From contig NW_026250405.1 in assembly GCF_024521635.1 (NCBI RefSeq), forward strand, positions 62,001-126,000: 64,000 nucleotides of DNA. Direction: 5' to 3'. A model generated the notes under the pieces. It saw only the letters and a program-made list of their open reading frames with translations. It ran no database searches and was not told where the DNA came from. Position 1 is the stretch's first letter. The number at the start of each line of letters is the position of its first letter. Positions 26,782-31,460 of this stretch are shown here, piece by piece. Source of the stretch: Tricharina praecox (Eukaryota). A program made the position numbers and the translations under genes.

Positions 26782-28017
26782 TTGCATCCTACGGTCCTAC
26801 CAGCGACAAAAAAGGTTCATTGAACCAGGGGATGCGCTTTTTGGCATATTCCTTTTTTTCCTTCATTCTTTTCAGCTTGTCCCCTTGGGATCTCATTCAT
26901 TCTTTCCTTTCCTTCTCGTTTTCTCATTCCTTCTGATTTTCTCTTTCCCAAAAGTTTCCTCAAACGTTCCCCCAAAAGTTCTACATGCGGCAGCACATTC
27001 GTTGACAGGAGGTTAGAGTACAAAAAAAATGGCGTGTCACAAATGGAGCTGTCGCTTTCCTTTCGTAATTCATTCATTCCCCTTCCCTTACCTTCTTTTA
27101 CCATATCGTTTTCCTTTTCCTTTTTCCTTTTTCCTTTTGCTTTTACGACTACGACAACGGCGGTTACAGATATCCTCTTCTTTTACGGGCATGTAACATC
27201 ACATCACTCTTTTACGGGGGCTTGAGGTTTTGTTCTTGTGTATAGAATTGGATTGGATTGGATGGGGCTGGGTGGTGGGCACTGGGCGTTCTGTTCTGTT
27301 TTGTATGGTTTGTTTGGTTTGGTTTGGTTGGCTTTGGGCAGGCTGTACTGTAACTACATAACTTCTTACCTACATAATTAACTCTACAGAAGAAAAAAAG
27401 TGTTGTCTGAAGGTGTGATCATTGGTGTGATCATTGATGTGATGTAGTGTGCTGAGGGTAGTGGTAATAACAATTTCGGGAATCGGCATTGACCGGACTG
27501 CTATCTACTATGTTGAGTAGATATAGGGAGGGGAGCGCAGGATCACCAGACAAACGCTCGGACCGGCCTACATAAAAAACTGGGTTTTGTGTAACCCAGC
27601 TCGTGCGATGTGGGTGATGTCGAGTCAGATATTGTGCATCAATTCAAGACGCGGAGCACAACGTACCTACTTTAGTATCTACCATGGATAGTAAAGCGGT
27701 GGTAACAGCACCATAGACTCGGTAAAGGTCACAATGAACTATCTACAGGATTATATCATATTAGTAGGTAGGTGTTGACAGTGTTGCACGTGACGATGTA
27801 CGTGGAGCCGTTAGAATTCATCAAGAACAGAATAGGTAGAATCAGTAAGAGAAGCCATACGAGCCACGATAACGTGATTCAATTGACTTGCCAAAGAAAG
27901 AAAAGAAAGAAAAGAAATTGAACACGGATACAGAAAAACTCGTTAAAGCCTCCAAAGAGAGAAAAAGAAAAAACCCTTCGAACAAGACGATGACTGAGCA
28001 AAGAAGAAAGGAAAGAA

Positions 28018-31000
28018 TTAGTACTTGTACTTCTTCTTATCCTTCTTCTTCTTGTAGTCGCCGTCTTCATCCTCGTCCTCGGATCCTCCTCCTCCATACT
28101 TCTTCTCGGACTTCTCCTTGTACTTCTTGTCCTTCTTTTTGTACCCGTGCTCCTCCTCGTCCTCGCCGCCAGAGTAATCCTTCTCCTTGTACTTCTTCTC
28201 TTTCTCCTTCTTCTTGCCGCGGTCCTCGTCATCGCCCTCGTCATCCTCATCGTCGTACTTTTTCTCCTTCTTCTTCTCCTTCTTCTTGCCCCACTCCTCA
28301 TCGTCGTCTTCTCCGTCACCGTCCTCGTCCTTAAACTTCTTCTTCTTCTCCTTCTTCTCCTTCTTTTTCTTTCCGTACTCTTCGTCTTCATCCTCATCAC
28401 CATCGTCGTCGTAAGACTTCTTCTTATCTTTCTTTTCCTTTTTCTTCTTTTCGTACCCCTCATCCTCGTCTTCGTCCTCAGGCCTATACTCCCTATCACC
28501 AGACTCATACTTCTTCCCCTTCTTCCCCTTCTCCTTCTCCTTCTTCTTGTCCTTGGACTTCTTACCATCCTCCTCCTCCTCCTCCTCCTCGTCGTTCTTC
28601 TCGTCGCCACCCTTCTTCTTCTTCTTGTCTTTCTTCTTCTTGTCCTCCTTCTCACGCAACACGTTAGACGATGAACCATGGCCATAACCCGGGGAATGTG
28701 CAGAATAGGGGTGAGAGTGGGAGAGGAAGGTAGAGGGAGGAGAAGAGTATTTATGAGTAGTACCTCGTCGGCCATAGCCCCCTTCGTTCCCGCCGCCGCC
28801 GTAATCCTGCCGCTCACCGCCGTAAGAATACTCGACGTCGCGGCCCCGCCCGCCATCGCGCCCATCAGAGTACTGCTGCTGCTGCCCGTATAAGCGCTCC
28901 GGCTGCTCGTAGGAACGCTCCGGTTGCTCGTAAGATCGCTCCGGCCGCATGTAGCCATCTTGCCGTCCGCTGTCGTCGTATTCCCATGAGGGCTGGTCAC
29001 TGGGCTCGTATTCCCGTCTGCTTTCGTACCGTGTTTCTTCTTCTGGCTCGCGCCCACTTTCGCGGTAGCGTTCAGTGGTGCGTGAGTACTCGGGGGTTTC
29101 ATACGACTCACGTGTAGAGTAGGAGGAGCGCTCGTCACCACCACCGTATGACGATGTCTGTTCATAGCTGGAGTACTCCTGCCGGGAGGAGGAGTAGGAC
29201 TCTTGGTGGGAGGAGTAGGACTCTGAGCGGGATTGTCCGCCGCCGCTGCCGCCGCCACTGCCGCTCTCGCCGAGGCGCTGGCTGATTGCGCCGCCGAGAA
29301 GGCTGCCAAGCATGCCGCCGAGTCCACTGTCACCGCCCTTCTTGCCGCCGCTGAGTGCGTTCTCCAGAGCCATGCCGACAGATTCGCCGACGGCTCCACC
29401 GATGTCACCGCCTCGGTTCTTAGGCTTGCTGCGGTGGATGGGTGCACCGCATCCGTGGCCGGAGTCGTGAGCTCCCGCCTTGTGGTTCTTTCCCTGCTGA
29501 ACACCGTCGCGTGACAGATGAGCGCGCAGATCCTCCTGCTGGTGCGAATCCTTAGAGCTCCACCATTCCTCGACAACCGCGAACATCATCTGGCGTCCCT
29601 CAACACCAGGACGTCCGTCCTCGCCGTTGCGGAAAGCGGGATGGTGGAAGACACCGCCGATGATCTCGTCACAGACCTGGTTGGGGTCAATTCCTTCGTC
29701 GTCCCAGGCATTCATGAGAAGGGGAACGGCGAATTTAAGGACTGCCGAGGCGACCTTTCCGGCTGGCTCGTTGAGGAGGTTGGTGAAGTGATCCTTAGAC
29801 AGCATGGAGTGGGTGGGGTTGCTGGAGTTGTCGTCATCAAACACGATGTGCTGCTGGGCCTCCGAGGAGGCAATAACTTCACTGCTACCGGTCTTCAGCT
29901 CGTTGCTGGCTTGCTTGATGACTGGTAGGATATAAGGCGCCAACAGGCAGAAGACAAAGACAGAGACAGCTTCGGCAAGCTTCTCCATGACCATGTCCAA
30001 TCCGACGCTCTCGAGGGCTTGGTTAATGCTGCGCATCAACTCGTCGTGGAACTCAAGGAAGGGATATATGTCCTTTCCGAGCTGCTTGGCGTCCTGCGAG
30101 AGGCCAAAGGGCGAGCCGTTCTCGGTAGCCTCCTTCTGGGCATCAGACTTCTGCTTGAGCTCAGAAGTCTTGCTGTCGATGTCGTCCTTTCCGCCGATGT
30201 TGAGCTTGCTCATCAGATCGCGAATAATGGACTGCTCGTCATCGCTCTGTCCAGTCTGCTGGGCCTCGGAGATGGTGTGTTCGAGCTGTGAAATCTCGCT
30301 CTGCAATGCCTTGTCGTTGACCTCGCCCAAAACCGAGTGCAAGAAGTCGACACCACCGAAAGTACCAGTAACAAGAGGCCAGATTTCTCTGCCCTGAACG
30401 TTGACCATGGTGTTGGCACCCACGTGAGGGAAGACGTCGTACTCTCCTAGCTCGATGAGCGCGAGCTCGGTGTAATTGGAGTGGGCGCTGAAATCTGTCA
30501 CATCGTCAGCATACGTCTACGTAGGGGGGGGGGGGGGGGGGGGGGAGGATATAGATATATACCCTCAATACAATGCAGTCCGGTTCCCATCAATCGAAAA
30601 GCCTCAAAGAGGTCTTCTTCCCTACCATTCCGAGCGTACTGGCGTCCTAGCGCGATGGACCGCGAAAACAGAGACCTCAACATCTGGGCTGCAACTACAT
30701 TAGTATGTCCTCCCTCGAACCCTCCAACCCATTCGCAGCAAAAAAAAACTCACCACTAGTAACCATGTCTTCACCGTTCGAGAGCCGTCTGCCCTCGGTT
30801 GCGATGTAGTTCTTCAGTCCGGTCTCGGGATCGATAGCAAGCTCCACTTCCTCGTCAACGGGCCCGCGGAGAGCTGAGTGCATATCCCTGGCATCGTTGT
30901 TGTCGTTGTAGTCCTTGGGGTTATCGATATGCTCTTCGGGGCGGTAACATCCCAAGCGCTCAGCAGTAACCTCGAACTCGCGGGTCGCGTATCCGAAAGT

Positions 31001-31460
31001 CATAAACGACAGAACCCAGAGCTATGTACCCCACCATTAGCATCCCAACCCCACCAACCCCACCAACCCCGGACACAAGAAAGAAGAACGTACAAGAATC
31101 CGCACAGTCTCGGCCTCGACGTACTTGAGCGCACCGGTGTCGATGGCCTGAGAGTAGTCGCGCAGCCAGTTTCCGAAGTAAATTCGCTTCACGTCCATGT
31201 TGCTGAATTTGCGTCGTTGACCGCCGGCAGCGCCGGCCGCCAGGAAGAGCTGCAGAAGCGTGTCCTCGAGATCACCATGGCGCCAGTTTTGACCTGGATG
31301 AATCAGTACCAGAAAGACGAGGAGGGGTATGATGGTACGTACCCTCGATCTTGGAGATACTGGCGATGTTGCCGGCACCAAAGGCGGCAGCTGGGGTACA
31401 GTAGAGTGCTAGGCATAAAAGCAGCACAGGGAAGAGTGTAGTATGGGATGTAAGCCCCAT
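28018..31460 (-). CDS. het-c: Het-C family protein (HET-C/HCH/TinC-like) with signal peptide; two possible C-termini (stop at 28562 or 28018)
   Basis: AFGAGNIASIS, NWRHGDLED, KRIYFGNWLRDYSQAID, LGCYRPEEHIDNPKDY, GLHCIEDFSAHSNYTEL, PTHSMLSKDHF motifs over 5 exons; Gly-rich tail. Confidence 0.92.

Follow-up and report, generated by a model that had tools for sequence, protein, structure and literature searches.

An optional frame-switching intron in the disordered tail of a Het-C family gene of Tricharina praecox

The window analyzed here, a stretch of 64,000 nucleotides (nt) from Tricharina praecox (assembly GCF_024521635.1, contig NW_026250405.1, positions 62,001 to 126,000), carries on its minus strand a gene of the Het-C/TinC family, the last exon of which runs from 30494 to the TAA at 28020-28018 in a gene model derived from the window sequence. 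Behind the Het-C domain, this exon encodes a long disordered tail with two coding introns, herein called A and B. The RNA contigs and the comparison with relatives indicated that B is probably optional, its retention or removal giving proteins of 1062 or 842 amino acids (aa), that A is likewise optional and compensates the frame, and that both proteins are presumably made and matter. The elements on which this reading relies are as follows, the main frame being the one that stays open through A and B and ends in a tail rich in lysine, aspartate and glutamate (K/D/E tail).

28018..31460, minus strand: Het-C/TinC-family gene, ATG at 31460-31458 to TAA at 28020-28018, 1062 aa with A and B kept (Pfam match and protein P0001)
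28648..28763, minus strand: optional coding intron B, 116 nt (3n+2), GTACTA..AAG, open in the main frame, RNA junction
28663..28667, minus strand: branch consensus CTAAC of intron B, 15 nt ahead of the acceptor, read from the sequence
28562..28647, minus strand: doubly read stretch, 86 nt, first part of the K/D/E tail (main frame) or short tail (B-spliced frame)
28021..28561, minus strand: K/D/E-rich tail in the main frame only, read when A and B share one fate, kept or removed (pN/pS, conserved blocks)
29057..29111, minus strand: optional coding intron A, 55 nt (3n+1), GTGAGT..AAG, RNA joint 29056/29112

Intron B and the two predicted C-termini

An initial annotation of this DNA had described B as a frame-switching optional intron, and the coordinates it gave for the donor, the branch and the AAG and GAG acceptors, the length of 116 nt, the pyrimidine-rich body and the absence of a main-frame stop were all correct on the sequence. 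The donor G/GTACTA has its GT at 28763-28762, the AG of the AAG acceptor, which ends at 28648, lies at 28649-28648, and the alternative GAG acceptor ends at 28651. The pyrimidine content of B was 67% overall and 76% across the first 80 nt, and that of the downstream exon was 17%. The main frame has no stop within B, and an in-frame stop is present in three of the four ordinary introns of the gene.

When B is kept, the ribosome would read through it and translate 248 further codons up to the TAA at 28020-28018, giving the predicted 1062-aa protein with the K/D/E-rich tail. When B is removed, the frame would shift by 2 and the TAA at 28564-28562 would be reached 28 codons on, giving a predicted 842-aa protein that ends in ...GGGGGGGW, seemingly the ancestral C-terminus. 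Both the short tail and the extension to 28018 (about 245 aa) that the annotation had proposed were borne out by conceptual translation of the sequence.

The motif pattern was rejected as evidence for B, as a scan for GTR..CTRAY..AG gave 2 candidates in the actual last exon versus 8.9 ± 4.9 in 200 codon-shuffled versions. Open alternative frames were rejected likewise, as the T-poor composition is enough to keep the A-spliced frame free of stops between 29588 and 27881 (568 codons). B was lifted above chance by the RNA, since an exact 28764/28647 junction occurred in contigs of two runs from two studies.

Spliced and unspliced B in RNA contigs

The RNA evidence consisted of assembled contigs of four runs (X1 to X4). 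The label of X1 as RNA was a guess only, and its cDNA nature was shown by record 4 (2568 nt), which joins over all four ordinary introns. X4 is a soil RNA run from a study other than that of X1, and X3 and X4 are soil RNA runs from one study. The joint listing masks the repeat at 28512-28652, and the B junction was read from overhangs. Record 4 of X1 stops at 28763 and goes on with a 27-letter overhang that departs from the adjoining intron and has its unique match at 28620-28646. In record 17 of X4, 147 letters lie above the junction and a further 52 overhang it, 30 printed letters of this overhang matching 28617-28646 only. Because bases 28647 and 28763 carry the identical letter, the junction is 28764/28647, exactly as predicted for a GT..AG intron that uses the AAG acceptor, and contigs of both X1 and X4 carry it. 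B accordingly combines GT..AG ends, a branch consensus near the 3' end and an exact junction in RNA, as a spliceosomal intron does.

The unspliced form was represented by record 3 of X1 (173 nt), which matched 28653-28792 unbroken with 0 mismatches and carried another 33 letters. The record is as long as the 116-nt intron and some 29 letters on either side combined, and the unspliced arm in an assembly-graph bubble would have this appearance. Records 4 and 3 of X1 therefore place both forms of B in one cDNA run. The contig depths were 1375 for the unspliced and 4800 for the long spliced contig, although such depth is unfit for ranking gene parts and contigs lose rare variants. Arithmetic on the contig depths showed that the depth bins across introns 1-4 in X1 and X2 are fully explained by spliced contigs, and the B sequence in X1 is not explained by general DNA contamination; this was the sole use made of contig depths. 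The contigs are uninformative on the cytoplasmic or polyadenylated state of the RNA that carries unspliced B. In X2, depths were erratic, many contigs had adapter ends and the B state was unreadable, and gene parts uncovered in X3 and X4 are uninformative.

Record 16 of X4 spans the main stop and the 3' flank (window 27924-28095) with substitutions at 28001 and 28037 and an AAG insertion behind 28000. This record comes from a slightly different strain and shows that transcripts run through the whole K/D/E tail.

Conservation of the retained frame in relatives

Three last-exon open reading frame (ORF) calls from environmental assemblies (P0002, P0003 and P0004) were 79, 76 and 69% identical to the window protein in their best BLAST segments. 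Each is a single frame that stays open across A, B and a K/D/E tail, with shared blocks, a shared end and a shared stop position, and among the 120 listed of 1844 family matches a K/D/E tail of such kind was found only in these three. Short protein fragments matching residues 440-600, as pieces of a spliced or unspliced ORF would, numbered 0 among 142 candidates.

At the DNA level, a first metagenome scan with a single protein as query found no relative, and a second scan with the alignment A1 as query gave 80 loci, the close ones being L001, L002 and L003 only; the loci of P0004, P0005 and P0006 were absent from these 80. As L002 and L003 are a near-identical pair, the close-relative DNA represents two relatives. 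In all three loci A is 55 nt long and retains GTGAGT and AAG, and B, with a length of 89 nt in L001 and of 92 nt in L002/L003, retains GTAC, a branch CTGAC that fits CTRAY, and the acceptor GAGAAG. All indels among the tails of the window and the three loci are multiples of three, including one between L002 and L003. This one is a whole-codon difference in the K/D/E tail (820 versus 821 aa), an in-frame length polymorphism consistent with a coding tail. With B removed, L002 and L003 give nearly the same short tail as the window, ending in GGGGW. The orthologue comparison that the initial annotation had called for was therefore largely favorable, with B at 89 or 92 nt, its splice signals kept, the main frame open and the short tail nearly the same in L002/L003, except that the short-frame stop is lost in L001.

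Selection was assessed on codon alignments of the window, L001 and L002, L003 being excluded as a near-duplicate of L002, with Nei-Gojobori proportions of nonsynonymous (pN) and synonymous (pS) differences.

Het-C domain: pN 0.05; pS 0.34-0.43
Tail up to A: pN 0.07-0.11; pS 0.35-0.37
Inside A: pN 0.02-0.07; pS 0.08-0.16
Between A and B: pN 0.15-0.24; pS 0.26-0.37; differences near-even over codon positions
Inside B: pN 0.14-0.19; pS 0.36-0.58; codon-position differences 5/2/13 and 7/4/14, a third-position bias
86-nt overlap: pN about 0.06; pS 0-0.09
K/D/E tail: pN 0.09-0.14; pS 0.44-0.64

For the K/D/E tail, pN/pS was about 0.21 when read in the main frame, compared with 0.8-2.1 for the two remaining frames, and the tail is regarded as coding sequence because the ratio is low in the main frame alone. 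As the interior of B also evolves as coding sequence, the retained form is, by this comparison, probably translated.

These data bear on the alternative that B is spliced constitutively, in which case the true protein would have 842 aa, the unspliced contig would come from RNA that is unprocessed or detained in the nucleus, and the K/D/E tail would be no more than an untranslated, purine-rich open frame. Such a view would gain from the T-poor DNA, which keeps frames open (as in the 568 codons of the A-spliced frame), from the likeness of the short tail to the usual family end, and from the T. praecox protein P0001, which stops ahead of B. It conflicts, however, with the main-frame-specific pN/pS of the tail, with the in-frame indels and with the blocks and stop position kept in P0002, P0003 and P0004, as well as with the third-position bias of substitutions inside B. 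The B-spliced frame itself, moreover, is not kept open, having frequent stops (18 more downstream of 28564), which makes its 28-codon run short and defined. We consider constitutive splicing of B very improbable.

Synonymous sites in the doubly read stretch

In the 86-nt stretch that would be read in the main frame when B is kept and in another frame when B is removed, synonymous sites were nearly frozen. Counting gap-free columns with the same degenerate amino acid in all three sequences, synonymous variation was present in 1/19 columns of the overlap versus 36/95 of the K/D/E tail downstream (Fisher p=0.006), and in 0/17 versus 27/78 when only K, E and D codons were considered (p=0.0024). 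Inside A, variation was found in 2/15 columns, against 34/77 in the upstream tail (Fisher p=0.04). Considering that main-frame third positions are first positions of the spliced frame, selection on the second frame would be expected to freeze synonymous sites in this way. The excess synonymous-site conservation by which dual coding is recognized was thus found in the overlap, and it is suggestive of selection in the second frame rather than proof of it.

Together with the spliced and unspliced contigs, the conserved retained frame and the kept splice signals, this near-frozen stretch sustains the original proposal of an optional frame-switching intron with two overlapping C-termini.

The short tail and the tryptophan end of the family

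The best local match of the short tail (P0121) was the extreme end of the homologue from Sphaerosporella brunnea (P0005, residues 756-769 of 770), with 9/14 residues identical and an E-value of 0.008 for that single comparison. P0005 ends in ...EERRGGW and the more distant P0006 in ...GRRW. Tryptophan (W) is terminal in 9 of the 120 listed family matches (of 1844) and lies within the last five residues in 9 more, while it makes up 0.37% of the last 150 residues in the same 120 matches; the binomial probability is 1e-9, with relatedness ignored. The W-terminus may therefore be the original end of the family, the main frame having later run on into the K/D/E extension in the Tricharina lineage, and removal of B would now be the sole route to the old W end.

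Many Het-C matches from Dothideomycetes (P0044, P0047, P0053, P0058, P0059, P0074, P0084 and P0093) end at or pass a shared ...YY.KEKK point. Those ORF calls that go on with intron-like text (YV...) hint at another intron in the disordered tail there.

The most serious competing explanation is that B, like A, is spliced through leakiness at weak cryptic sites in a long exon, the 1062-aa protein alone being functional and the frame-shifted mRNAs being degraded or giving harmless truncation. The donor GTACTA is indeed weak, A and B end in AAG whereas the four ordinary introns end in CAG or TAG, conservation of the main frame extends across A and B, L001 lacks the alternative stop, and removal of A alone gives an implausible arginine-rich reading of 1090 aa past the normal stop. 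Against these points, the long cDNA contig of X1 carries the B-spliced form and the same form recurs in an unrelated soil RNA run; the donor GT, which lies at a four-fold degenerate Gly codon, is retained, as are branch and acceptor, by all three distinct sequences; synonymous change is nearly absent from the overlap; and the short tail matches the Sphaerosporella C-terminus and the recurrent terminal W of the family. Leaky splicing as the whole explanation is, in our judgment, unlikely.

Intron A and the combined products

The initial annotation, right as to B, had missed the second optional intron, A, which lies 293 nt upstream of it. The spliced joint 29056/29112 was found in record 11 of X3 (176 and 177 letters on the two sides, 0 mismatches) and in X2 (side of 29), and record 4 of X1 reads straight through A, spliced and kept A coming from different runs. 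A resembles spliceosomal introns in its GT..AG ends and RNA junction, and no CTRAY branch was found in it, the nearest match being CTGAA. It encodes the best-conserved peptide of the tail, ETPEYSRTTERY (29100-29065). Removal of A alone would shift the frame by 1, and removal of both introns would bring back the main frame, as 55+116=171=3x57. The predicted products are as follows.

A kept, B kept: 1062 aa, K/D/E tail
A kept, B spliced: 842 aa, short tail with W end
A spliced, B kept: 1090 aa, arginine-rich reading past the normal stop
A spliced, B spliced: 1005 aa, frame restored, 97 residues in another frame

The compensating lengths raise the possibility that individual molecules lose A and B as a pair, the main alternative product then being the 1005-aa protein, with 97 residues in the other frame and the K/D/E tail kept. 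In accordance with this, the sum of the two lengths is a multiple of three, the intermediate frame is open in the window, L001, L002 and L003, and a single soil RNA study yielded the A junction (in X3) as well as the B junction (in X4). No contig among those of X1 to X4 links the two junctions, however, and the X1 contig combines spliced B with kept A, although a contig is not strict proof of linkage. Joint removal would also lose the best-conserved tail peptide, and the A-spliced frame between A and B appears to be without selection of its own (pN/pS 0.76-1.24, against 0.61-0.64 in the main frame), while lengths summing to 3n are automatic if the main frame must stay open. Joint removal as the principal event thus appears improbable.

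Assessment of the two-protein reading

We therefore favor the reading in which B is optional and both the 1062-aa and the 842-aa proteins are presumably made and matter, the weak sites (donor GTACTA, acceptor AAG) making removal of B incomplete and possibly tunable. Several points weigh against it. In L001 a GGT>GGC change abolishes the short-frame stop and lengthens the tail by 21 codons, to end in ...VWG, and the exact short tail is thus not strictly conserved. The kept splice signals and the 3n+2 length would partly follow from conservation of the main-frame peptide, and the synonymous tests had three sequences and 15-19 columns to draw on, in a low-complexity region of uncertain alignment. 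With such a weak donor and acceptor, B splicing could be partly noise, and the B-spliced mRNA, with its 3' untranslated stretch of more than 540 nt, might be exposed to decay. As for the RNA, assembled contigs are unfit for isoform ratios, for conditions and for A-B linkage. The bridging threshold is 31 letters, and X1 stays just below it both with the spliced overhang, of 27 letters, and with the unspliced contig, flanked by 29 and about 28 letters, leaving X4 (for B) and X3 (for A), both from one study, as the robust bridges.

A more far-reaching version holds that B is a conserved and regulated toggle between an ancestral W form and a lineage-specific 245-residue K/D/E form of differing location or partners, that A is a second, compensating switch giving up to four C-terminal variants, and that the 86 nt are truly dual-coding and selected in both frames. 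Lysine-block tails often direct nuclear or nucleolar residence. We put this version forward tentatively, as a possibility well short of the probable.

Gene structure and family assignment

The membership of the gene in the Het-C family, also claimed in the initial annotation, was established by a significant profile match of the last exon to PF07217 (E 3.3e-122, 409 bits versus a cut-off of 21) and by P0001, the top match in a search of 5.8 billion proteins, which was 100% identical and is named in its source as a Het-C-domain protein, partial, of Tricharina praecox (Pezizomycetes). The last exon covers profile positions 220-560 of 561, the remainder being encoded by the upstream exons (P0001). 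P0001 has 800 aa and ends nine codons ahead of the B donor. The 486-residue tail past the Het-C domain matched 0 Pfam families at E up to 1. The remaining features of the gene are the following.

31294..31342, minus strand: ordinary intron 1, 49 nt, GTACGT..CAG, spanned by contigs of X1, X2 and X4
31022..31093, minus strand: ordinary intron 2, 72 nt, GTACGT..TAG, spanned by contigs of X1, X2, X3 and X4
30689..30753, minus strand: ordinary intron 3, 65 nt, GTGAGT..CAG, spanned by contigs of X1 and X2
30495..30562, minus strand: ordinary intron 4, 68 nt, GTATAT..CAG, with record 4 of X1 and record 9 of X2 going from 30494 to 30563
31371..31439, minus strand: hydrophobic N-terminal stretch, residues 8-30, Kyte-Doolittle peak 2.08

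The N-terminal stretch at residues 8-30 looks like a putative signal peptide. A second strongly hydrophobic stretch lies within the Het-C domain (window 30167-30226, residues 409-432, Kyte-Doolittle 2.1 over 19 residues); it is a candidate membrane segment and, as such, would place the entire variable tail on a single side of the membrane. A dilysine retrieval motif for the endoplasmic reticulum at the ...KKKYKY end was rejected, since position -3 is Y here.

Over intron 3 (window 30689-30790), P0001 reads ...RLSNVAAQMLR, and the contigs of X1 and X2 join 30754 to 30688, giving ...RLSNGEDMVTSAQMLR. It seems that either the deposited model has wrong splice sites at this intron or a further alternative event occurs there. 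Intron 4 contains an unbroken run of 22 C on the coding strand (window 30520-30545), a homopolymer liable to length errors or variation.

Significance and comparison with known systems

Het-C/TinC proteins are widespread in fungi and their cellular role is poorly understood, and a conserved two-tail splice switch would, if true, offer a concrete handle, as the gene could be locked into either isoform by one synonymous change of the donor or by exact deletion of the intron. Coding introns and short, apparently dual-coding stretches are handled poorly by gene-prediction pipelines, and this locus provides a clean fungal example of both; P0001 is flagged partial, ends before B and has an intron 3 unlike the RNA-supported one.

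Introns inside protein-coding exons, termed exitrons, have been described in Arabidopsis and human, and those whose length is not a multiple of 3 shift the frame and change the C-terminus. A and B resemble them in being flanked by coding sequence and free of in-frame stops, in their canonical GT..AG ends and in their coding-like evolution, with B both removed and kept in RNA contigs. The T. praecox case differs in being fungal, in having two such introns with compensating lengths in one disordered tail, and in that the splicing frame seems to restore an ancestral end. A literature search on exitrons and fungi showed no fungal exitron by title among the matches listed, and a search combining het-c, intron retention and heterokaryon incompatibility found nothing. 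The present gene is thus a fungal exitron-type case giving alternative C-termini, of a known kind, for which we found no report in the Het-C family.

In Ustilago and other fungi, alternative 3' splicing yields cryptic peroxisomal targeting. A conserved alternative 3' splicing event is described for SKI7/HBS1 (PMC3597508). These systems share with the present one that a single fungal gene has two C-termini through optional splicing, kept across species, whereas the het-C tails are low-complexity and without a known targeting signal or separate function, and the switch is a frame shift in a doubly read region.

Within the family itself, Neurospora HET-C is linked to non-self recognition and Aspergillus TinC to the NIMA kinase and nuclear-envelope fission, according to passages of PMC1325252 that mention no alternative splicing for them. 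The K/D/E tail, moreover, is found only in the closest relatives of Tricharina praecox among the matches listed. Apart from these differences, the T. praecox protein shares with HET-C/TinC the Het-C domain PF07217 and an N-terminal signal-like stretch, and has a divergent Gly-rich C-terminal region like the one described for HET-C (PMC1325252).

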